Shown here: piece by piece, positions 711 through 9,930 of the stretch
How the letters are laid out: each line of letters starts with the position of its first letter
Numbering within the stretch: position 1 is the first letter of the stretch
NCBI GenBank assembly: GCA_963796275.1
Contig: CAWCKY010000003.1
Span: 768,001 to 832,000, forward strand
Reading direction: 5' to 3'
DNA from: an uncultured Acidobacteriota bacterium
GTDB lineage: Bacteria > Acidobacteriota > Blastocatellia > RBC074
Length of the DNA stretch: 64,000 bases
The notes under the pieces: generated by a model
Databases searched by the model: none
What the model saw: only the letters and a program-made list of their open reading frames with translations
Told to the model about the DNA's origin: nothing
Program-made: the position numbers and the translations under genes

Positions 711-832
711 GAGCGTAGCGCGACATTCTCATACTATAATCGGAAAAGAAACATTTCTTATTTGCTCTTCAAATTTTTAAGGCTCTGATTGATTATTCTA
801 TGCGCGAGATTATCAAGTTGTACAGAATCACA

Positions 833-1289
833 CACGATGCCAGAACCGGAAAGGAGCGGTGGCACAAGCTGATCGCCGATGTGAAGCAGGAATACTTCTC
901 GACGCCGGCTCCGCTCGTCATCCGCAACCACGTGATCATCGGTATGGGCGGCGATTCTCTCGACGTCCCGGGCTGGCTGGAATCTCGCGATCCGGAGACC
1001 GGGGAACTGCAGTGGAAATGGTACACAACGCCTCGTAAAGGGGAGCCCGGATTCGAGACCTGGCCGGATGAATACGCGGCAGCTCACGGAGGCGGAATGC
1101 CCTGGCAACCCCCGACCTACGATCCCGAGCTGAATCTGCTTTACGTGCCTACCGGCAACCCGAATCCAGTGATGGCCGGTCAGAGCCGCAAAGGGGACAA
1201 CCTGTGGACGGCTTCAATCGTTGCGCTCAACCCGGATACCGGAAAGATGGTCTGGTATTTCCAGTGCTCGCCTCACGACACGCACGATG
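833..1289 (+). pseudogene. Internal fragment of a PQQ-dependent dehydrogenase-like beta-propeller (acido-empty-quinoprotein-like)
   Basis: ORF 800-1363 contains DARTGKERW...YDPELNLLYVPTGNPNP...GDNLWTASIVALNPDTGKMVWYFQCSPHDTHD. It lacks a signal peptide, the N-terminal blades and everything after HDTHD (normally followed by WD). Confidence 0.8.
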
Positions 1290-1370
1290 ATGTCGTATCA
1301 GGACTTATCAGCCATCGGCGCCTCCGAGTGCCTACGTGGTCGAATTTAGTTACACTCACATAAATCGCGT

Positions 1371-2168
1371 TTACTTGCTGCTCGTGAGCATTGAAAGCGG
1401 TCGCATCTCGAGGCTGAAATCTTGTGGATGTTCGCCGATGATAGCGGCGGCGACCAGCGCCGGCGTGTACCCCGCGCCTTCTCCTTGAAAATTCGAGCTG
1501 AGCGAATCCTTCTTTTCGGTCAATAAGCAAATGCTACAAGCCGCGCCGCGCGCTTCGCCAACCGCGCTTAGCATCTGTTCGACGGCGCGTTCCCCCTGGT
1601 TATATGCGAGCAAGCTCAACCACAAGTCTCCTGCAAAGCGTCCTTGTAATTCTGAGAGATAGCGAGCGGCTGCATCAGCTGCTTTCGTGGGATCGCTGCG
1701 TTCATCGGCGGTGAGCCCAAAGCGCGTTGCAGTCTGTTCCATGAATTGAAACATCCCTGAAGATCCCGCCGGGCTTATCAGATCATTGCGATATTCTGAT
1801 TCCATCAGTGGCAGGTAGATGCCGACCAGCGGCGAAAGATTGTACGCCCGGAAAATATTAGCGAACTCCGGCGCATGCCTGGCCCCCCGCATCAAGACCG
1901 AGCGTAAATCTTCCTTGTCCCCGTCGTTGCCGATGCGCTCGGCGTAAGCTTCGACGCGCTCGACGATGAGCGCCAGGTAGGCGTGCGATAAATCAGACGA
2001 ACGTCCGGTGATAGCGGCGCCGATCCGGTGAGCCTTATCTTTCACATAAGCCTGTTTGTCAGCTGCCGAGCGCTGCTGAAAGGTTTGCGCAATTGCGTCG
2101 ATCGATGCCCAGGAGATGAGCAGACAACAGAGAGAAGCAAATATTGGCATTTTTGAAATTTGTTTCAT
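1371..2168 (-). CDS. Secreted lytic transglycosylase (SLT domain, MltD-like)
   Basis: Signal peptide; catalytic ES (MESEY), GMFQFM, ERSDP..AARYL and AYNQGE motifs; SD GGAGGA. Confidence 0.9.
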   Translation of the reverse strand: MKQISKMPIFASLCCLLISWASIDAIAQTFQQRSAADKQAYVKDKAHRIGAAITGRSSDLSHAYLALIVERVEAYAERIGNDGDKEDLRSVLMRGARHAPEFANIFRAYNLSPLVGIYLPLMESEYRNDLISPAGSSGMFQFMEQTATRFGLTADERSDPTKAADAAARYLSELQGRFAGDLWLSLLAYNQGERAVEQMLSAVGEARGAACSICLLTEKKDSLSSNFQGEGAGYTPALVAAAIIGEHPQDFSLEMRPLSMLTSSK

Positions 2169-2241
2169 AATACGAATCCTCCTCTAAATTTTCGCGTGAA
2201 AAGAGTTGCGGTTAAGATTTCCGCAGGTTTCGATCTCAGTA

Positions 2242-3300
2242 TCATTTGCGTGCGGCGTATGCCTGCTTGACGAATTCAGGCACTTTAGGTTCAAGTTCGA
2301 ACTGCTCGATGGTAGGTTGATGTTTTTTTGTCAGCGCCCAACGTTGCAACCATGAAATCCCGGCTCGCCCTGTAAACCTATCCTCCAGGCTGTACGCTTT
2401 GTCTTGAAATGCATCTTCCAGCGAAATGAATTGATAGCCGCGCTTTTTCATCATTGCGATCAGCTTGTCAAAATGATCTGCATTGAGCATGTTTGCGTGT
2501 ACCAATAATATTTGCTTTATTTCGTAGCCCAGCAGCGTGGCGGATTGTTTTTCATAGAACTCTATCGACGCTTCCATGTACGGCACGTAAGCCTCAGCAA
2601 CGCGATTCATCATTGCACGATCATTATTTTTTAAAGCGTCTGCATAAACAGCGGCGAAGACATAGTCCTGATTATCGACAGTTACCGGAGCTACGATATA
2701 CTTCCGTTCGGCCAAAATATTTTCGAAGGCATTTTTCATTTCAAGAGATGCGCCGGTGTTGAGGTAGGGATGGCGAAAATACCGTATCTTCATCTCTCTG
2801 GCGATCAACAATTTTTGCGTAATTTTCTCGCCCGCGAGCAAATCCTGTTCGAACTTCTCGGCCGAGGCCGTGAACATATCCAGGTGCGAATACGTGTGAT
2901 TGCCGAGTTCAAATCCCGCCTCGACCCATAGCTGCAAAATGCTTGTGCGCGCCTCGACTTCATCGTGTTGATATGGAGATCCAGCGCGTTGATGTAATTT
3001 CCCTTCGTTAATGAAACCGATTACCGGGACCTTGTTTCGCTTGAGCGTCTCGATCAATTTGCTTGTCAGGGCTTTCAGTTCCTTCACCGGATAAGTCGGC
3101 ACCGATGGCAAATCGTCGAATGTGATAGCGATTTGCCTTTGTGGTTGAACGGGGCTCGTTGTCCCGGTACGAGCCGATGAGCGGTGTATTTTTGCAGCAG
3201 CTATTCGCTGATCATTCTGTGTGAACGAGCCGATAGAAAGGCCGGTAATAAGGGCACAACAGCAGGTGGCAAACAGCGCCACCACAAAAAATCTTTTCAT
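2242..3300 (-). CDS. Secreted polysaccharide deacetylase (CE4/NodB)
   Basis: TFDDLP, GNHTYSH, RYFRHPY and ILLVH motifs; start moved to ATG 3300 (SD AAGGAGG, signal MKRFFVVALF). Confidence 0.9.
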   Translation of the reverse strand: MKRFFVVALFATCCCALITGLSIGSFTQNDQRIAAAKIHRSSARTGTTSPVQPQRQIAITFDDLPSVPTYPVKELKALTSKLIETLKRNKVPVIGFINEGKLHQRAGSPYQHDEVEARTSILQLWVEAGFELGNHTYSHLDMFTASAEKFEQDLLAGEKITQKLLIAREMKIRYFRHPYLNTGASLEMKNAFENILAERKYIVAPVTVDNQDYVFAAVYADALKNNDRAMMNRVAEAYVPYMEASIEFYEKQSATLLGYEIKQILLVHANMLNADHFDKLIAMMKKRGYQFISLEDAFQDKAYSLEDRFTGRAGISWLQRWALTKKHQPTIEQFELEPKVPEFVKQAYAARK

Positions 3301-3475
3301 CTGATGGTTCTCCTCCTTATGGTATTCCCGTGAAACTCTTTTAGTATAACCGCGCATAAAAAACTGGTTGAGCATTTTGATCGATTTGTTACACTGTTTG
3401 CCTCTCTAGAACTAACGCGGCAAAAATGGCGAAATGACGACATTCTGACTGAATATTTTTTTTCTTAAGATAAAA

Positions 3476-4063
3476 ATGAGCGGATCAGCGGAACGGACAT
3501 CTGGTGAATTGACGCGATTGCTCATCGCATGGAGCAAAGGCGATGCGTGCGCGCTGGAAAAACTGGCGCCTCTCGTCTACGCCGAGATGCGCAAACTCGC
3601 GCACCGGTATATGAACCGCGAGCGCGCCGGGCATACCTTGCAAACCACGGCGCTCGTTCATGAGACGTTCTTACGTTTGCTCGGCAACCCGCAGGATAGC
3701 TGGCAAAATCGCGCGCACTTTTATGCGATCGCAGCACAAATGATGCGGCGCATACTGGTGGATTACGCGCGCGCAAATTTGCGTACGAAACGCGGTGGTG
3801 AGGCGACCCACATTGCTCTCGCGAATATCGATTTGCCGGTTGCCGACTCCGCGCTAAACCTCGATTTCATTGCGTTAGATGCGGCGCTGGAAAAGCTCGC
3901 AGCGATAGATCCGCGTCGTAGCCGCGTAGTCGAGTTGCGTTTTTTTGGCGGACTCAGCGTCGAAGAGACGGCGCTGGTGCTACAGGTTGCCCCGGATACG
4001 GTTGTGCGCGACTGGCGCGTTGCCAAGGCCTGGCTCTTTCGCTACCTGAATCATGCAAGCTAA
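3476..4063 (+). CDS. ECF sigma factor, TIGR02999/ECF43-like (kinase-associated)
   Basis: LAPLVYAEMRKLAH, HTLQTTALVHE, RAHFYAIAAQMMRRILVDYAR, VVELRFFGGLS and RDWRVAKAWL; overlaps the kinase gene by 11 bp. Confidence 0.93.
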   Translation: MSGSAERTSGELTRLLIAWSKGDACALEKLAPLVYAEMRKLAHRYMNRERAGHTLQTTALVHETFLRLLGNPQDSWQNRAHFYAIAAQMMRRILVDYARANLRTKRGGEATHIALANIDLPVADSALNLDFIALDAALEKLAAIDPRRSRVVELRFFGGLSVEETALVLQVAPDTVVRDWRVAKAWLFRYLNHAS

Positions 4064-6068
4064 CGAATGGGAAAAGATCGGCTCGCTGCTTGATCGCGCG
4101 CTGGCCTTACCGGCTGCACAACGACAGGCATATCTTGCCGAAATAGCGCGCGTCGAAGGCGAAGCGATCAGCCGAGAAGTCAAAGCTCTATTACAAGCGG
4201 ATCAGGATTCGGACGGTTTTCTCGGTACCGACGCGCTGGTGCTGGCTGCACGGCAACTCGCCGACAATGCCCAGGCAGGGGAACGGATCCTAGAGAATGC
4301 GAAGTACGGGAACTATCGCATTCTCACGAAGCTCGGGGCGGGCGGCATGGGTGAGGTCTATTTAGCTCTGGATGAAACGCTCGGCAGACGCGTGGCGCTC
4401 AAGTTCTTGCCGCATCTTTTTATGCAGGACGAGACGCAGCTAGCCCGCTTCGAACGAGAGGCTCGCGCGGCATCGGCACTCAATCACCCCAATATTTTGA
4501 CAGTCTATGAAATCGGCCGCGCGCACGGGCGCGCATTCATTGCAACGGAATACGTCGAAGGGAGAACGCTGCGCGCCACGATCGCCGAACGAAATCTCTC
4601 GTACGGCGAGATTCTCAAAATTGCCGAACAGATCGGAGCGGCGCTCAATGCCGCGCACGTTGCGGGCCTCATCCACCGTGACATCAAACCCGATAACATC
4701 ATGCTTCGCCCCGATGGCTATGTGAAGGTTCTGGACTTCGGGTTGGCCAAACCCGTCAAAATGGCAGAAGCATCAAACCCAGGTTTTACAACCGCTCAAC
4801 GGCGGCTGAAGCGACAGCCGCGGCAACAAACGCAGGAGGGAATGGTTCTCGGCACACCCGGATATATGTCGCCCGAACAAGTTCAGGGAGAAACGCTCGA
4901 CGCCCGGTCAGACCTGTGGAGCCTCGGCGCAACGCTGTATGAGATGCTCACCGGAACCGCATTATCCGCGGGCGCTGCCGCTGTGCGAACCGTTGATGTT
5001 CTGGGCAGACACGCGATGGTTGACCTGTTAATGACCGGTAAACATCGACTGTTTCAACCGATGCTGCAAAAGGCTCTCGCGCAACAGCCGAGTCACCGCT
5101 ACCAGAGCGCCCGGGAGTTTCTCATCGATGTCGATCGAGTAAAAATGGCTTGCGCACGCGGCAAACCGAAATTTCCGAGCGCCCGCTCGAAAAGACTGGC
5201 CGTGATCGCGTTTTCGCTTTTCATCGTGTCGTCCCTCGGGCTGATCCTCTGGCGCGAAGCTGCGCCGGTCGAACGCCCGGCGGTTTCACAATATTCAATC
5301 GATCGGGGGAGGGTTTCAGAAGCGGAACTCTATTGGAAACTCAGCGATGCTGAAAAAATGGCGTTTATCCGTGAGGCAGCGCAGAACATCGCGAAAATGC
5401 TGGGCGAGGATCCTTCAGCACATACACACAGACAACTTTCTAAGATCAAAAACAATCTCGAAACTTTTGTGGTGAAGCGCAACAGCCTCTCGACCGACCC
5501 CGGACGGGAGAGCATCAAAGCTACTCATGCTCGCGCGAGCGTCTACGCTCCTTTCATCATCGATGCGTTCAGCGAACGCAACCTGCCGCCGATTTTGGGC
5601 TTGTACATTGCGATGAATGAGACGGAATATCACCCGTGCACGGAATCGATAGTAGGCGCGAAAGGGCTCTTTAGTTTTATGCCGGGGACCGCGCAGCGTT
5701 ACGGATTGCGACTGACCCCGAGCGATGAGCGTTGTGATCCGCGCAAAATCGCCCAGGCCGCGGCACATTACCTGGAAGATCTGACCAAATTGTACGGCCG
5801 AAATGCGGACGCTTTGACATTGGCAATGCTGGCCTACAATTGGGGAGATACTCGAGTGTCGCGCGCGGTGGCGGAGCTTAAGGCAAAAAACGTTCATCCC
5901 ATCAACTTCTGGACTCTCCTGGAAAATAATGCGCGGTTGTCCATCCCCATGAATTCAGAGAGCCAAAATTATGCGCCCCGATTTTTTGCGGCCGCGATAC
6001 TGGGCGAAACTCCTCAGCGCTTCGGATTGGAGACTCAGAGACTCTCAGCCTACACCGCGAATAAGTGA
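4053..6068 (+). CDS. Membrane Ser/Thr protein kinase with C-terminal lytic transglycosylase (SLT) domain
   Basis: GAGGMG, VALK, HRDIKPDN, DFGLAK and GTPGYMSPEQ; one TM helix (LAVIAFSLFIVSSLGLILW); SLT motifs NETEY, GAKGLFSFMPGTA, DERCDP and AYNWGD. Confidence 0.92.
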   Translation: MQANEWEKIGSLLDRALALPAAQRQAYLAEIARVEGEAISREVKALLQADQDSDGFLGTDALVLAARQLADNAQAGERILENAKYGNYRILTKLGAGGMGEVYLALDETLGRRVALKFLPHLFMQDETQLARFEREARAASALNHPNILTVYEIGRAHGRAFIATEYVEGRTLRATIAERNLSYGEILKIAEQIGAALNAAHVAGLIHRDIKPDNIMLRPDGYVKVLDFGLAKPVKMAEASNPGFTTAQRRLKRQPRQQTQEGMVLGTPGYMSPEQVQGETLDARSDLWSLGATLYEMLTGTALSAGAAAVRTVDVLGRHAMVDLLMTGKHRLFQPMLQKALAQQPSHRYQSAREFLIDVDRVKMACARGKPKFPSARSKRLAVIAFSLFIVSSLGLILWREAAPVERPAVSQYSIDRGRVSEAELYWKLSDAEKMAFIREAAQNIAKMLGEDPSAHTHRQLSKIKNNLETFVVKRNSLSTDPGRESIKATHARASVYAPFIIDAFSERNLPPILGLYIAMNETEYHPCTESIVGAKGLFSFMPGTAQRYGLRLTPSDERCDPRKIAQAAAHYLEDLTKLYGRNADALTLAMLAYNWGDTRVSRAVAELKAKNVHPINFWTLLENNARLSIPMNSESQNYAPRFFAAAILGETPQRFGLETQRLSAYTANK

Positions 6069-6136
6069 TTTTCTGGGCTTCGCCGTTTTATGCCCGCCTT
6101 GTTTTAAAAAAAGTAGTTATATAGTTAAATAACTGC

Positions 6137-6165
6137 TTGACTACCCTCTGGCCTTGGCAGATAAT
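6137..6165 (+). promoter_or_regulatory. Putative sigma70 promoter for the SDR gene
   Basis: TTGACT-17 bp-GATAAT. Confidence 0.45.
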
Positions 6166-6227
6166 GCCGCCGAAATGTTCGATCGGAAAATAAATCAACT
6201 GACAACAATGGAAAATAGGAGGGTGGT

Positions 6228-6980
6228 ATGTCTCTTTCACTTAATGGGAAATCAGCGTTGATAACGGGGAGTTCCCGCGGGATTGGTCGTGCGATAGCCG
6301 AGCGTTTTGCCGCTGACGGCGCGTCTGTCGTCATTAATTACACGCAGAGTGAGAAATCGGCGCGTGAGGCGGTCAAAAGCATCGTCGATAAAGGAGGTCA
6401 GGCGGTTGCTATCAGGGCCGATCTCGCCAAAACCGCGGATATTAGGCGGCTTTTCGATGAAGCCGAAAAGGCTTGGGGGCGATTGGATATCGTGGTGGCC
6501 AATGCGGGTGTTTTTTTGGGGAAACCTCTGATTGAAAGCACAGTGGAAGACTATGATTACGTTTTCAACATCAATACCAGAGGTGTTTTCTTCACACTGC
6601 AGGAAGCTGCCAAGCGGGTGCGCGATGGTGGGCGCATCATTGTCGTTTCGACGGGAGGGACTAAGATGTATTTCGCCAATACCTCTCTCTATATTGGGAG
6701 CAAAGGCGCGATCGAGCAATTCGCCAGGGGACTCTCGCGCGAGCTCGGTCCGCGAAACGTGACCGTCAATATTCTCTCTCCGGGATTCACCGAAACGGAT
6801 ATGTTCGATAAAGCGGCAGATGAGCTCGGCAGCGATCAGATACGCGGCGGAGCGAGCCTTTCGCCTTTCAATCGCATCGGCACATCGGTGGAAGTGGCCG
6901 ATGTGGCTGGGTTTCTAGCTAGTGACGCCGCACGATGGGTAACTGGGCAGAATGTGCAGGCGGGCGGCGGAGTTGTCTGA
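6228..6980 (+). CDS. SDR-family NAD(P)-dependent oxidoreductase
   Basis: TGSSRGIG, ANAG and YIGSK motifs; SD AGGAGG. Confidence 0.93.
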   Translation: MSLSLNGKSALITGSSRGIGRAIAERFAADGASVVINYTQSEKSAREAVKSIVDKGGQAVAIRADLAKTADIRRLFDEAEKAWGRLDIVVANAGVFLGKPLIESTVEDYDYVFNINTRGVFFTLQEAAKRVRDGGRIIVVSTGGTKMYFANTSLYIGSKGAIEQFARGLSRELGPRNVTVNILSPGFTETDMFDKAADELGSDQIRGGASLSPFNRIGTSVEVADVAGFLASDAARWVTGQNVQAGGGVV

Positions 6981-7272: not shown

Positions 7273-9930
7273 ATGTCTATTATCAAGAGCAAGAGAGGAA
7301 GGGATTTCAAGGGGCCGGTAGCATGGCTTTTTGGCCGTGAGTTACTCAGCCAGCTCAAATGGATACTGCTCTATACGGCAGCCGGTAGCCGGTTCGACCC
7401 GCGCCAGTGGATGCAGGCTAATATCTACGATTACCTCAAAGAGGAAGGGGAAGGCGAGTCGATCGGAGACGAATTCTGGTTCGATTACCTTTCAGATACA
7501 GGCGATGGAATGAAAGCTACTTATAGTATCGCTTATCTCTGTATGAGCGACCTGTACGTGGAAGATTTGTCAACTGATTCAAACGCCGATCGGAAAGCTG
7601 AGCGCGAGGTCAGGCTTCATCATAAGAGGGGAAACTACAGGAACGTGCTCCCGCGCGGTCAATTTTTATTCGTGGGTGGTGATACCAGCTACCACCTCGC
7701 CGATTACGAGACCCTGGCCAACCGTTTTCAGACTCCTTTTGAATGGGCGTATGAAGACCTGTGTGCGGACTTGAAAGATACGCCCTCCGATTTGAATGTA
7801 CGGCGGCCGTTCTTCGGAATTCCGGCCAATCACGATTATTACGACGAGATCGACGGGTTCAGGCGTCAGTTTCGCCGTCAAGTTTCCGATGAAGACCTGA
7901 AGTGTGGGATCTGCGGTGCCACCGGAAGATACATCCGTGAGACAAAAAAAGACCTCGAATACGAATGCGTATCATGTTCTCCGCCGACCATAATCAAGAG
8001 ACCGCAGTTGCAAATATCGGCCTTCAAACGCTGCCAGGAAGCGAGTTATATCGCAATCAAGCTCCCATTCGGATGGTGGTTATGGGGGCTCGATACCGAG
8101 AGAGGCGGTATCGATTACAGGCAGAAAGATTATTTCCTCACCGCTCTGAAAAAGGGTGGTGGTGAAACCGGAAGTAACAACCGGAAGCACGTACCGGATA
8201 AGTTGATAGTGGCAAACTCTGTACCGATATTCGCCTTCGGGCAACTGGCGAAACTAGACGATGAAAAATCGACCCGGGCATACGATGAACTCGATCTCGG
8301 TCTTCCGTACCACAAGGGAGCCGTCGATCCTCTCGCTGCCGGACAATGCCGCCTCGATCTATCCGGAGACGTGCATCATTACGCGCGGTATGGCGGTCCA
8401 CATTGCACGGGAGATGATCCGCGAGCTGGCGGCCAGGCACCACGCTATACCAATAATAGCTATGCCTCGGTAGTCTCCGGATTGGGTGGCGCATTTCATC
8501 ACCCGTCGCAGACCTACGCCGACGAGATCAAAGAACAGGTTTTATATCCCCCCGAGAATATATCGCGAGCTGCAATAGCGGAGAGAATCTTTAAATTCCG
8601 GACGATATGGAAGGGCGGATACGTCGGCATCATCGGGGCAGTTATCGCGACAATTTTCTATTTCGGGCTTGCAGTCGGCATTCCGTTCCGTGGTTTCTAT
8701 AACATCACCACATTCGAAAGAGCTCGAGAGCCATGGCTATTCCCATTTGCTCAAGGTCCATCACTTTTCGCATTATCATTCCTCGCCTTATCAATAGTTG
8801 GACTATGGTTAGCCTTCAAAAGGGTCTCAGGTCTTCTGCAAACCGTCAGAAAATTCAAGGCGAGCGGCAGTAGAGCGAGGGATGGTGTTCAGGATTTGAG
8901 GCGAAATGAGAAAAAAACGATCATGCTGCTCTGTGCGATCACAATCGTTACCACTATAGCCTGGCTCGCTGGATTGTATAGACTAGATAGCTATACGCAA
9001 AACATTTCGCCCTTCTTTCACAGTATCATTATCTTCCTTTGCCTGCTCTGGGCTGGTGCGGCGATATGGCTAAATATCAGGTATAGCGATCTCATATCTC
9101 ATATGTCATCCTACCGCAATATAACAGTATTTCATCTGGTATTGACGTGGATGTTATGGATTGCTGTTATTACAATCATGCTTGGTGGGATTTATTTGTA
9201 TGGCGAACAGCGGTTTTCCGTCTTGGTCTCTGACCTCGTCTTAATATCCACGCTGCTGGGACTATTGTGCGCGGTACTCTATCTGGCTATAAGCGTGAGC
9301 GGGGAGATCGGCAGTAAGATGGGGTGGCCATTTTGGTTACTCCTGGGAGCGCTGCATCTGGTATTTCAGATGGCTGTTCCGCTTGAGATAGTAGTTAAAG
9401 GAGCATGGTATGTCTGGTTTATTGCAGGTGTATTGCTCTTGTATGTGTTTCCCAGAGCAGGCGAATATCTGATGAAAAATAACATTTCTTGGTTGAAACT
9501 CGGGAACAGATGGTGGTTACTGATTGCATGGGTGATTTTCGGTGCCGGCATAATGGCACTCACCTTCATAGAGGATACGCCGTTCATTGATGTCATCACC
9601 GAAACCGCTGTTCCTTATTTGCGGTTTGTAGTAGAAGAGGGGTCGGGAAAAGATTTTACAGGGTTGATTGCGGCCTTCTTCGTAGGAGGAGTAACAAGTT
9701 GCGTCTGGCTAGGCTGGTACCTGGCAGTCTCTCTCGGGTTTAACGGCCATAACAATGAGGTGGGAGGCGCGACGCGCATCGAGAATTTTAAACAATTCGT
9801 CCGTATTAGACTTACAAGAGATACGCTTTCAGCATATGTGATAGCCGTCGATGAACCTGAGCAGAAGGGGAAACTCTTGAAACCCAGGATAGTCGACTCA
9901 TTCACGCTCGTTGTGAAACATGAAGATTAA
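7273..9930 (+). CDS. Calcineurin-like metallophosphoesterase with a large polytopic membrane domain
   Basis: DYLSDTGDG, GGDTSY, PANHDYYD, LSGDVHHY and SGLGGAFHHP; roughly ten hydrophobic segments; short soluble C-terminal tail (NGHNNEVGGATRIENFKQFVRIRL). Confidence 0.8.
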   Translation: MSIIKSKRGRDFKGPVAWLFGRELLSQLKWILLYTAAGSRFDPRQWMQANIYDYLKEEGEGESIGDEFWFDYLSDTGDGMKATYSIAYLCMSDLYVEDLSTDSNADRKAEREVRLHHKRGNYRNVLPRGQFLFVGGDTSYHLADYETLANRFQTPFEWAYEDLCADLKDTPSDLNVRRPFFGIPANHDYYDEIDGFRRQFRRQVSDEDLKCGICGATGRYIRETKKDLEYECVSCSPPTIIKRPQLQISAFKRCQEASYIAIKLPFGWWLWGLDTERGGIDYRQKDYFLTALKKGGGETGSNNRKHVPDKLIVANSVPIFAFGQLAKLDDEKSTRAYDELDLGLPYHKGAVDPLAAGQCRLDLSGDVHHYARYGGPHCTGDDPRAGGQAPRYTNNSYASVVSGLGGAFHHPSQTYADEIKEQVLYPPENISRAAIAERIFKFRTIWKGGYVGIIGAVIATIFYFGLAVGIPFRGFYNITTFERAREPWLFPFAQGPSLFALSFLALSIVGLWLAFKRVSGLLQTVRKFKASGSRARDGVQDLRRNEKKTIMLLCAITIVTTIAWLAGLYRLDSYTQNISPFFHSIIIFLCLLWAGAAIWLNIRYSDLISHMSSYRNITVFHLVLTWMLWIAVITIMLGGIYLYGEQRFSVLVSDLVLISTLLGLLCAVLYLAISVSGEIGSKMGWPFWLLLGALHLVFQMAVPLEIVVKGAWYVWFIAGVLLLYVFPRAGEYLMKNNISWLKLGNRWWLLIAWVIFGAGIMALTFIEDTPFIDVITETAVPYLRFVVEEGSGKDFTGLIAAFFVGGVTSCVWLGWYLAVSLGFNGHNNEVGGATRIENFKQFVRIRLTRDTLSAYVIAVDEPEQKGKLLKPRIVDSFTLVVKHED

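Follow-up and report, generated by a model that had tools for sequence, protein, structure and literature searches.

A putative peptidoglycan-sensing receptor kinase with an MltD-like ectodomain next to an ECF43-type sigma factor in an uncultured Acidobacteriota bacterium

It is poorly understood how bacteria with a Gram-negative-type envelope sense the state of their cell wall. The known receptor kinases with such a function, the PASTA kinases, recognise stem peptides and occur mainly in Gram-positive bacteria. A sensor that is derived from a wall enzyme is known from BlaR1/MecR1, where the sensor domain of BlaR1 has a penicillin-binding fold, and in the SigV-RsiV lysozyme response the ECF sigma factor SigV induces a peptidoglycan deacetylase upon attack on the glycan. 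Sigma factors can also be activated by phosphorylation, and to our knowledge few of their input signals are known. In group ECF43, a QTTA consensus contains a Thr that is phosphorylated by the adjacent kinase, as described for EcfK/PknS and EcfP/PknT (PMC13147305, PMC8999054).

The locus described here is located in a stretch of 64,000 nt, called the window in the following, from an uncultured Acidobacteriota bacterium (GCA_963796275.1, contig CAWCKY010000003.1, positions 768,001 to 832,000). The features are, in the order of their positions in the window:

1371..2168, minus strand: free secreted lytic transglycosylase (free SLT), 265 aa, with signal peptide; MltD-like catalytic module without LysM
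2242..3375, minus strand: polysaccharide (peptidoglycan-type) deacetylase; Pfam Polysacc_deac_1, E 1.3e-17
3367..3396, minus strand: conserved non-coding block GTGTAACAAAWCGAT...AAATGCTCAAC, facing the deacetylase/free-SLT operon
3409..3443, plus strand: conserved non-coding block GAACTAACGCGRCAAAAA...GACGAC, 66 nt upstream of the sigma gene
3476..4063, plus strand: ECF sigma factor, 195 aa; Pfam Sigma70_ECF, TIGR02999
4053..5195, plus strand: receptor kinase, cytoplasmic part; Pkinase and a conserved N-terminal extension of 85 aa
5196..5252, plus strand: single transmembrane helix of the kinase, residues 382-400
5253..6068, plus strand: extracytoplasmic MltD-like lytic-transglycosylase module of the kinase; Pfam SLT, AlphaFold model

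The locus probably represents a self-contained cell-wall signalling module of two divergent operons, with the sigma factor and the kinase on one side and the deacetylase and the secreted lytic transglycosylase on the other. The end of the sigma gene and the start of the kinase gene overlap by 11 nt. The deacetylase gene is on the same strand as the free SLT gene and upstream of it. Its first ATG falls within a conserved non-coding block, so that translation probably begins at M26 (nt 3300).

[quoted passage not shown] The canonical acidic DAED patch of region 2.2 is replaced by QTTA at residues 56-59 (nt 3641-3652), in the context HTLQTTALVHE. The same is true for the characterised pairs EcfP-PknT of Vibrio parahaemolyticus and EcfK-PknS of Xanthomonas citri, in which the sigma factor also lacks DAED and has a phospho-acceptor Thr in QTTA, the kinase gene lies directly downstream, no anti-sigma gene is adjacent, and the kinase is a single-pass protein with an outer domain. 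Here, the kinase gene directly adjoins the sigma gene, and the scanned neighbouring gene products had no match to anti-sigma families. ETTA, QPTA or QTTA was also found in the sigma factors of four further loci (L011, L012, L013 and L017). The QTTA motif, the two profile matches and the adjacent kinase point to an ECF43-type sigma factor, a putative assignment that was made from these features. The locus differs from the two characterised pairs in its outer domain, which is a lytic-transglycosylase module, and in its putative regulon, which would be a wall-modifying operon instead of the polymyxin-resistance or type VI secretion genes of these pairs.

The Ser/Thr kinase has 671 aa (window 4053-6068) and contains a Hanks-type kinase domain (Pfam Pkinase, residues 88-309, E 7e-45). 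The catalytic motifs are intact (GxGxxG 95, VALK 114, HRD 208, DFG 228, SPE 273), and together with one membrane helix and an outer domain all features of a Hanks-type receptor are present. The earlier note had assigned the interval 5250-6068 to the ectodomain, and this agrees with the position of the lone hydrophobic helix (residues 382-400, nt 5196-5252). Pfam did not reveal any PASTA match in the kinase, and the NCBIfam model PknB_PASTA matched the kinase part only, with 267 bits at a cut-off of 450.

BLASTP aligned kinase residues 411-671 with residues 18-265 of the free SLT, with 87 identities in 261 positions (33%), 52% positives and an E value of 2e-38. The alignment extends from just behind the membrane helix or the signal peptide, respectively, to the final residue of both proteins. 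The proposal that the ectodomain and the free SLT are full-length paralogs was thus verified over 261 aa. The same holds for the proposed colinearity beyond the catalytic core, since Pfam SLT covers just residues 503-613 of the kinase (E 2.1e-14) and 108-206 of the free protein (E 5.5e-20), and all three peptide pairs that had been quoted for it are inside the alignment.

An AlphaFold model of the ectodomain was obtained with a pLDDT of 94.7 and a pTM of 0.90. For the whole ectodomain, the best match in sequence and fold among solved structures was MltD of P. aeruginosa (PaMltD, a family 1D lytic transglycosylase; PDB 8RHE/8RHF/8RHI), with a phmmer E value of 7e-17 and a Foldseek TM of 0.62. 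VIA-align superimposed 194 residues of the model (41-267) on PaMltD with a Z score of 19.8 and an rmsd of 2.7 A. Past the Pfam SLT core, the extensions of the ectodomain for the most part match the larger catalytic domain of MltD, and the first helix (28-46) is largely unaligned. With a goose-lysozyme-like fold and a match to the SLT profile, the ectodomain shows two features of the GH23 family 1 lytic transglycosylases, subfamily 1D (MltD-like). Unlike PaMltD, to which it is about 27% identical, it has neither LysM nor a lipoprotein anchor and is tethered to a kinase by an N-terminal membrane helix. Pfam LysM matches were absent from both the kinase and the free SLT, and the two proteins scored 55.8 and 35.4 bits with the NCBIfam MltD model, which has a cut-off of 508. 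A true MltD-like gene with LysM (L010) is present elsewhere in the genome.

The ectodomain shares with PaMltD the catalytic Glu, the Tyr-Asn of motif III and the Tyr of motif IV. It also shares a Thr, a Tyr and a Glu that contact bulgecin or chito-oligosaccharide in PaMltD (PMC11327851); these ligand residues were mapped onto the ectodomain via the alignment of the phmmer match. The active-site positions of the kinase module include E523 (nt 5619), T524 instead of Ser, S541 (nt 5673) instead of the motif II Gln, Y595-N596, E636 and Y640. The free SLT has the canonical motifs E123-S124, GMFQFM, AYNQG and Y234. The catalytic Glu had been claimed for both copies and was found in both, as E523 and E123, and motif III (A-Y-N-x-G) and the Tyr of motif IV are likewise common to the ectodomain (AYNWG, Y640) and the free copy (AYNQG, Y234).

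Two active-site positions differ. The reported exchange of Gln for Ser in motif II is real: GLFSFM (538-543) in the kinase stands against GMFQFM (138-143) in the free SLT, so that the pattern G-L-x-Q was found in the free copy alone. The second difference, which was absent from the earlier note, concerns the Glu-Ser of motif I, where the kinase copy retains the Glu and has Thr in place of Ser (NETEY versus MESEY). In PaMltD, the motif II Gln (Q162) forms a hydrogen bond to the +1 sugar, jointly with E144 and N215, and position 162 (printed as N162) also contacts subsite -1 via water, as stated in PMC11327851. Judged from the alignment with PaMltD, both changed residues adjoin the scissile-bond site, and the replaced Gln is a contact at subsites -1/+1. 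A measured effect of a replacement of the motif II Gln was not found in the consulted literature on lytic transglycosylases.

Both changes were followed in 67 tethered homologs of the kinase type, with pairwise identities down to 40%. None of them has Gln in motif II (62 Ser, 4 Gly, 1 Ala), and the residue after the catalytic Glu is Thr in all 67 and Ser in none. The two exchanges are therefore fixed in the kinase lineage and not a one-off. Among the free homologs listed the Gln was present in 120 of 120, and thus Q to S is not common in the family of the free neighbour. The other groove residues of the tethered homologs are highly conserved: the Glu, the motif III Tyr and the motif IV Tyr are present in 67/67, the motif III Asn in 66/67, and the equivalents of PaMltD Glu245 and Thr167 in 64/67 and 63/67, respectively. 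The equivalent of Tyr195 is a Tyr in 54 of the 67 (9 Phe, 3 Cys, 1 His).

The distinction between kinase-fused and free copies, clear in this lineage, does not extend to the wider family. Among representative rows of the wider family the Gln was kept in 16/22 kinase fusions, 35/35 FHA fusions, 9/9 Trans_reg_C fusions and 61/69 proteins with SLT only. Most fused copies have fully canonical motifs, and, therefore, fusion by itself does not imply a loss of catalysis. The catalytic Glu is missing in a few fused copies, e.g., in the kinase P0282. Among the best 150 of 12,010 hits, the whole module was found behind kinase, FHA, Trans_reg_C (ToxR-like), TIR and adenylate/guanylate cyclase domains. 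In these best 150 of 12,010 hits, one hydrophobic helix precedes the module in 16/18 kinases, 31/35 FHA proteins, 9/9 Trans_reg_C proteins and 5/5 TIR proteins, and the lone cyclase row has two hydrophobic segments before the module. Type VI secretion genes adjoin FHA-fused copies and also the third paralog of this genome; the locus L008 adjoins a TssK/VasE gene.

The ectodomain and the free SLT turned out not to be close duplicates. They belong to different starred clades of one large MltD-like family and are deep paralogs, in two trees that were rooted at the midpoint only and from which the LysM-type MltD outgroup rows, with matched stretches of less than 190 residues, had been dropped. On the basis of these trees, an origin of the two SLT genes by recent tandem duplication was rejected. 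A third paralog, which is encoded elsewhere in the genome, matches the ectodomain better than the free SLT does (E 4e-41 versus 3e-34).

The pairing of the genes is conserved, which fits an enzyme/sensor pair. The free SLT gene is divergent from the sigma and kinase genes in four of six related loci, and the divergent layout is also present in distant genomes (L011 and L012), the kinases of which are 37-39% identical. In the window, L011 and L012, the free neighbours fall into one clade of 15 rows (99*) and the kinase ectodomains into a second one with 51 rows (99*), showing that the pair is old and was co-inherited. The tethered copies of L011 and L012 have kept the motif II Gln and are fully canonical, and, thus, the pairing predates the changed motif and is independent of it. 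In L013 an analogous pair was found, with members from other clades of the family. The deacetylase gene is part of only two of the seven examined loci with the pair; in L012 it occupies the same position, and its product is 38% identical. One locus, L005, contains the sigma and kinase genes and no free SLT gene within 4.2 kb upstream.

The two non-coding blocks between the operons were conserved in 5/5 loci compared (window, L001, L002, L003 and L006). In the genome of 9.46 Mb, the 15-nt core of the block at 3367-3396 occurs exactly only here, and its 27-nt pattern with up to four mismatches detected its own site and one site with four mismatches on contig C6. For the block at 3409-3443, the sole exact match in the genome is at the locus. 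Relaxed genome scans for both blocks yielded other sites only with 2-4 mismatches. From their positions and their conservation, the first block is a candidate sigma-dependent promoter and the second a candidate autoregulated promoter. A published ECF43 promoter consensus for comparison with the blocks was not found. A sigma-70-like promoter was not called in the spacer between the operons, and a scan of 1200-6300 for sigma-70 promoters and terminators gave counts equal to the shuffle level. An RNA run that contains the locus was not listed. The two blocks were also compared as a possible single motif; inspection by eye showed agreement at about 15/24 positions, and neither block was recovered with a degenerate joint pattern, so that a shared element is not claimed.

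The kinase is best interpreted as a peptidoglycan-sensing receptor kinase with a sensor derived from an enzyme, for which we estimate a probability of about 0.6. We infer the following chain of events. The ectodomain would bind glycan strands of peptidoglycan, or products of lytic transglycosylases, in its active-site groove, and it would probably turn over the ligand slowly or with an altered specificity. Occupancy of the groove would activate the kinase, which in turn would phosphorylate the Thr of QTTA in the sigma factor. The phosphorylated Thr could supply the negative charge that the sigma factor would need for binding to RNA polymerase. The sigma factor would then transcribe its own operon and the divergent operon for the deacetylase and the lytic transglycosylase from the two conserved intergenic blocks.

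The conservation of the Glu and of the groove fits equally well to an active membrane-tethered enzyme as to a sensor. The ectodomain could be an anchored lytic transglycosylase without a sensor function, which the kinase positions or regulates from inside, or the two activities could be independent. The exchanges of Q to S and S to T would then tune the substrate preference, possibly towards glycan that has been de-N-acetylated by the neighbouring deacetylase. This is clearly less probable than a sensor, even though 63-67 of the 67 homologs retain the Glu, the Tyr-Asn, the motif IV Tyr and most groove residues (54/67 for the Tyr195 equivalent), most fused relatives keep the canonical motifs, and type VI secretion genes, next to which cutting of the wall is plausibly needed, are neighbours of the FHA copies and of the third paralog. 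The partners Trans_reg_C, TIR and cyclase are outputs and not known regulators of periplasmic enzymes, the catalytic Glu is missing from some fused copies, and the outer domain of a characterised ECF43 kinase, PknS, modulates signalling (PMC13147305). The earlier note had considered a binding-only domain or a heterodimer with the free copy. In such a version, the tethered copy would be catalytically dead and would act by pairing with the free enzyme, or would bind the 1,6-anhydro products of the latter. A Glu and a groove that are so strictly conserved would not be expected of a dead domain. The location of both exchanges next to the catalytic Glu, their fixation in 67/67 homologs and the conserved neighbourhood of the free enzyme would agree with such a role. 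The same pairing exists, however, in L011 and L012 with fully canonical tethered copies, and the two copies are deep paralogs. A binding-only domain is doubtful, in view of the conserved Glu, motif III Tyr-Asn, motif IV Tyr and other equivalents of PaMltD contacts, and we regard this explanation as improbable. A complex prediction without controls, in which the ectodomain (P0076, residues 18-267) was paired with the mature form of the free SLT (residues 28-265), resulted in a score of 0.00 (mark 0.32), which counts neither for nor against binding.

The neighbourhood of the genes might also be fortuitous, in which case the sigma/kinase pair would sense something other than peptidoglycan and the free SLT and the deacetylase would be housekeeping enzymes. 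The locus L005 with its lack of a free SLT gene in the 4.2 kb upstream and the presence of the deacetylase gene in only 2/7 loci are in line with this. It is nevertheless very improbable, because the divergent layout is still present at kinase identities of only 37-39%, with both partners in matching clades, an analogous pair from other clades of the family exists in L013, and the intergenic non-coding blocks are conserved. Taken together, the interpretation given in the earlier note was partly supported, namely with respect to paralogy, fixation of the exchange and conserved pairing. The two copies are not the closest relatives of each other, the loss of Gln is not general among kinase fusions, and a binding-only role is doubtful.

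The proposed receptor kinase would follow the same logic as the PASTA kinases PknB, PrkC and StkP, which are single-pass Hanks kinases with an outer domain that binds peptidoglycan fragments, as cited in PMC13147305. In contrast to these, the fold of the sensor is derived from an enzyme (GH23), it would read the glycan backbone and not stem peptides, and the output would be a sigma factor. In BlaR1/MecR1 and SigV-RsiV the signal is transduced by proteolysis, whereas Ser/Thr phosphorylation would be used here, and the sequences are unrelated. The locus offers a putative glycan-reading sensor from the very enzyme family that cuts glycan, and this sensor would be coupled to a sigma factor that belongs to the type activated by phosphorylation. 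The free enzyme and its tethered relative with two fixed active-site changes form a clean natural experiment on the way from an enzyme to a receptor. An earlier description of the SLT-kinase architecture was not found in the literature searched, and the survey of outer domains by Iyer et al. 2020 may list one. The word 'transglycosylase' is absent from PMC13147305 and PMC7826278, and no mention was found in the ECF43 literature searched.

The fusions with kinase, FHA, ToxR-like, TIR and cyclase domains suggest that the principle is used repeatedly in Acidobacteriota. As a tentative generalisation, the MltD-like module could be a widespread, previously unrecognised class of extracytoplasmic peptidoglycan sensors that read the state of the glycan strand and are located behind one membrane helix, with at least five kinds of cytoplasmic partners. 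The lineage of the window may have been retuned by the exchanges of Gln to Ser and Ser to Thr to hold the substrate or product instead of turning it over. It may then drive a sigma factor that is activated by phosphorylation and has a free member of this enzyme family under its control. In soil DNA, one run contained a fraction of 0.23 of the words sampled from the locus.

Open reading frame (ORF) listing, translation, and Pfam and NCBIfam scans revealed two divergent gene pairs:

1371-2168, minus strand: secreted lytic transglycosylase (LT), the free SLT, 265 aa, one SLT domain (ORF and Pfam)
2242-3375, minus strand: polysaccharide deacetylase, upstream of the free SLT
3476-4063, plus strand: ECF sigma factor, 195 aa (Sigma70_ECF, E 1.8e-51; TIGR02999, 212 bits against a cut-off of 126)
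4053-6068, plus strand: Hanks-type kinase with SLT, 671 aa (Pkinase at residues 88-309, E 7e-45; Pfam SLT at 503-613, C-terminal)

The start of the kinase ORF overlaps the end of the sigma factor gene by 11 nt. The kinase has a single hydrophobic helix (residues 382-400, nt 5196-5252) and its SLT domain is C-terminal, and thus the interval 5250-6068 is exactly its extracytoplasmic part. The first 85 residues (4053-4310), ahead of the kinase domain, had no Pfam match; they align from residue 1 in the kinases of three related loci (L011, L012, L016), which are only 37-39% identical to the window's kinase, and may be a conserved region where the sigma factor docks.

The earlier note had described the ectodomain as colinear with the free SLT beyond the catalytic core, with the catalytic Glu kept and motif II altered. 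BLASTP analysis bore this out: the two proteins are identical in 87 of 261 columns (33%, E 2e-38). The alignment spans kinase residues 411-671 and free SLT residues 18-265, i.e., it starts just past the membrane helix or signal peptide and ends at the last residue of each protein. It contains all three peptide pairs quoted in that note, and the Pfam SLT domain covers only about 100 residues of each protein. The catalytic Glu is present in both copies (E523 in the kinase, E123 in the free SLT), and motif II is GLFSFM in the kinase copy versus GMFQFM in the free SLT. The earlier list did not include a second difference: where family 1 enzymes have Ser after the catalytic Glu, the kinase copy has Thr.

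The AlphaFold prediction for the ectodomain, from a 78-row alignment, was confident (mean pLDDT 94.7, pTM 0.90), and residues 21-265 formed one compact helical domain. The best solved relative by sequence and by fold was Pseudomonas aeruginosa MltD (PaMltD; phmmer E 7e-17; Foldseek E 4.8e-7, TM 0.62). VIA-align superimposed model residues 41-267 on residues 84-278 of the PaMltD chain with a Z of 19.8 and an rmsd of 2.7 Å over 194 residues, and MltF, MltE, Slt and goose lysozyme ranked lower, with lower Z. Most of the colinear extensions (model residues 41-267) thus correspond to the 1D (MltD) subfamily's larger catalytic domain, and the greater part of the first helix (28-46) is not covered by the alignment. 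In contrast to MltD, both window proteins have this catalytic domain without the LysM repeats. A true LysM-bearing MltD-like gene is present elsewhere in the same genome (L010).

A search with the ectodomain for proteins of similar total length yielded 72 proteins, of which 62 carry Pkinase and SLT (precomputed Pfam domains), mostly with 640-690 aa. The named examples are from Blastocatellia or Chloracidobacterium metagenome-assembled genomes. The free SLT yielded 797 proteins, of which the best 120 were used. Both sets were aligned to the ectodomain and the motif columns were read. In the 67 kinase-type rows that hold the region, the Gln position of motif II was occupied by Ser (62), Gly (4) or Ala (1), and motif I was always Glu-Thr. 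The remaining five rows were an FHA fusion with Glu-Thr and Gln, three LysM-type MltD proteins with Glu-Ser and Gln, and a protein without the region. The 120 free homologs had Glu-Ser (118) or Glu-Ala (2) at motif I and Gln throughout at motif II. Thus, both substitutions are fixed differences between the kinase-type and the free lineages.

According to excerpts of the PaMltD report (PMC11327851), motif I is E144-S145, Y249 hydrogen-bonds E144, and Q162 hydrogen-bonds the sugar in subsite +1 jointly with E144 and N215; position 162 (once printed N162) contacts the -1 moiety of bulgecin through water, and T167, Y195, Y214 and E245 are further contacts. These residues were mapped via the phmmer alignment and counted in both sets. 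Across the 67 rows of the tethered clade, with pairwise identities as low as 40%, the equivalents of the catalytic E144, Tyr214 and Tyr249 are present in 67/67 rows, Asn215 in 66/67, Glu245 in 64/67, Thr167 in 63/67 and Tyr195 in 54/67 (otherwise 9 Phe, 3 Cys, 1 His). Gln162 and Ser145 were found in 0/67 each, the latter being always Thr, and these two positions, nearest to the scissile bond, are the only ones changed. The counts indicate that, in the tethered clade, purifying selection acts on both groove and catalytic machinery.

Scanned without a profile against 1.84 billion representatives, the ectodomain had 12,010 matches at E <= 1e-3, 108 of them at E <= 1e-30. Most of the best 150 of the 12,010 cover the whole module (query about 20-264). 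A FastTree tree of 149 module rows contained two large clades, each starred 99, and an IQ-TREE quick tree of 86 rows (a chosen subset plus the modules of newly fetched loci) agreed in the main points. In the latter, the ectodomain is in a 51-row clade (99*) of mainly kinase and Trans_reg_C fusions and the free neighbour in a 15-row clade of free proteins (99*). Rows with a matched stretch below 190 residues, LysM-type outgroups included, were left out, and therefore both trees are unrooted in effect. A third full-length paralog in the genome is closer to the ectodomain than the neighbour is (E 4e-41 versus 3e-34). From this and the separate clades, the two neighbours are deep paralogs rather than the product of a recent duplication.

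Pfam was run on 146 of the best 150 representatives and on the protein P0071 to assign architectures; the other four were known from the homolog sets, and 153 rows were counted.

Conservation of the motif II Gln and the catalytic Glu by architecture
Kinase-fused: Gln 16/22; Glu 21/22
FHA-fused: Gln 35/35; Glu 35/35
Trans_reg_C-fused: Gln 9/9; Glu 9/9
TIR-fused: Gln 4/5; Glu 4/5
Other fusions: Gln 9/13; Glu 12/13
SLT-only: Gln 61/69; Glu 65/69

The survey of this position suggested in the earlier note thus had a divided outcome: the difference between kinase-type and free homologs stood (Gln in 0/67 versus 120/120), but Gln loss is not tied to kinase fusion, as most kinase-fused representatives keep it. 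The Gln-less rows cluster in two supported subclades adjoining the window's protein. One consists of Blastocatellia kinases (100*), the other of 9 rows (95*) with kinase, cyclase, FGE-sulfatase and short forms, 8 of them without Gln. FastTree joined the two (support 92); the IQ-TREE quick tree left them unresolved.

Six related loci (L001-L006), all from species-representative genomes, were compared. The free SLT is divergent from sigma factor and kinase in four of them (L001, L002, L003, L006). L005 has sigma factor and kinase, the free SLT being absent from the 4.2 kb upstream examined, and L004 ends at a contig end. The deacetylase was found in none of the six. Of 61 sampled genomes of the class, 20 had a match at E <= 1e-25, and in three of these a long and a short match lie a few kb apart on opposite strands (L011, L012, L013). 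In L012 kinase and sigma factor are divergent from deacetylase (38% identical to the window's) and free SLT, the exact four-gene order of the window; L011 has this order minus the deacetylase. The kinases of both loci are 37-39% identical to the window's and have the canonical Glu-Ser and Gln, and their free neighbours share the 15-row clade with the window's free SLT. The same order, the canonical kinases and the common free clade thus indicate that the pairing of enzyme and receptor is old, co-inherited, and earlier than the Gln loss. In L013 (G021:C164:9000-16442) a QPTA sigma factor and a module-bearing kinase are divergent from an SLT protein of 317 aa. Neither module falls in the clades of the window pair, and thus the layout recurs with different family members.

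Alignment of the inter-operon spacer of the window, L001, L002, L003 and L006 revealed two conserved non-coding blocks:

3367-3396, minus strand: block facing the deacetylase/free SLT operon
3409-3443: block on the sigma factor side, 66-86 nt upstream of the sigma factor start

The former contains the first ATG of the deacetylase ORF, so the true start is probably M26, which opens a signal-peptide-like stretch. Genome-wide, the core of each block has an exact match at this locus only, and scans with 2-4 mismatches found other, imperfect sites. A sigma-70-like promoter was not called in the spacer. From position and conservation, the blocks are candidate sigma-dependent promoters.

Residues 52-62 of the sigma factor are HTLQTTALVHE. 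As described in excerpts of two reports (PMC13147305, PMC8999054), ECF43 sigma factors have a QTTA-type motif in place of the acidic DAED patch of region 2.2, the adjacent Hanks kinase phosphorylates the motif Thr, and this supplies the charge for binding the RNA polymerase beta-prime subunit; the mechanism was shown for EcfP/PknT and direct phosphorylation for EcfK/PknS. ECF43 is also listed among the kinase-linked groups (PMC7826278). The putative assignment of the window's sigma factor to the ECF43 type rests on motif, family matches and gene context. The window's kinase has all catalytic motifs.

Among the best 150 of the 12,010 matches, the whole module follows Ser/Thr kinase, FHA, Trans_reg_C (a ToxR-like layout), TIR_2 and, once, Guanylate_cyc domains, and it is also combined with FGE-sulfatase, TPR, PASTA, WD40, META, a BlaR1-type M56 peptidase and DUF5715. 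By a simple hydropathy scan, exactly one hydrophobic helix precedes the module in 16/18 kinase, 31/35 FHA, 9/9 Trans_reg_C and 5/5 TIR fusions. A single outer module that recurs with many cytoplasmic signalling domains is what usually marks a sensor domain. The few named family members are from Acidobacteriota.

The favoured reading, with a probability of roughly 0.6, is that the locus encodes a peptidoglycan-sensing receptor kinase feeding an ECF43-type sigma factor. Beyond the observed paralogy, fold, fixed residue pattern, conserved groove, QTTA motif, gene order and non-coding blocks, it holds that the sensor would be an MltD-type enzyme module retuned at its catalytic centre. The ectodomain would bind a ligand and signal outside-in through the kinase, which would phosphorylate the sigma factor, and the latter would control both its own operon and the divergent one of deacetylase and LT. 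The main rival, a tethered active enzyme with a kinase that is not its read-out, is considered rather unlikely. Most fused copies look fully catalytic, and the conserved residues are compatible either with catalysis that is slow or altered or with a binder for which the Glu remains necessary. A few fused copies are without the Glu, e.g., the kinase fusion P0282 (705 aa), in which all four motifs are degenerate, and thus at least some members work without catalysis. In the family members P0282, P0306, P0318, P0300, P0299 and P0269 it is replaced by Met, Tyr, Arg, Val, Gln or Asp. The version of the earlier note, in which the tethered copy is a dead domain or a heterodimer partner, appears more doubtful still, and the conserved groove and catalytic residues argue against a decayed pseudo-enzyme.

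Each half of the receptor kinase reading is already known, i.e., lytic transglycosylases of family 1D and signalling by ECF43 sigma factor and kinase. The combination of kinase and SLT is visible to automatic annotation (some JGI names are 'serine/threonine protein kinase/soluble lytic murein transglycosylase-like protein'). In full-text searches of the articles themselves, no paper described an LT outer domain, either for a receptor kinase or as a sensor module in general, although a table may already list one.

The third paralog (L008, C3:1485637-1489380, ORF 1216-2844) is a 542-aa protein with a membrane helix at its N-terminus and the canonical motifs Glu-Ser and GLFQFM, and it is extended at the C-terminus by about 190 aa. 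The gene directly downstream encodes the type VI secretion protein TssK/VasE (Pfam T6SS_VasE, E 9e-72), and in the tree the paralog groups with the FHA-fused forms. Because of this gene, the paralog and the FHA-fused forms may be no more than enzymes that a type VI secretion machine has recruited. From the grouping, FHA-SLT fusions may be wall-cutting parts of such systems under the control of threonine phosphorylation. The ORF upstream of the paralog (L008 3-1010, 335 aa) has a weak Big_7 match and is without catalytic motifs; its end resembles the C-terminal helices of the module (…FLAAGIVAENPDKFGI…), and it may be a degenerate relative. L014 and L015 (G034, G044) encode a protein of about 650 aa with FHA, membrane helix and module and about 200 further residues past it, preceded by a 500-aa ORF with a weak second SLT-like match (E about 1e-17).

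Two further ORFs lie near the window's gene pairs. The 187-aa ORF at 800-1363 (plus strand) is flanked by the gene of an M28-type peptidase and by the free SLT. Of the 595 positions in the PQQ dehydrogenase propeller profile it matches 156-293 only (E 9e-29), and it looks like the remnant of a quinoprotein dehydrogenase gene. The 885-aa protein at 7273-9930 (plus strand) had no Pfam match at E <= 1e-3; by eye, its N-terminal half is metallophosphoesterase-like (GDTSYH, NHDYYD) and is followed by many hydrophobic segments.
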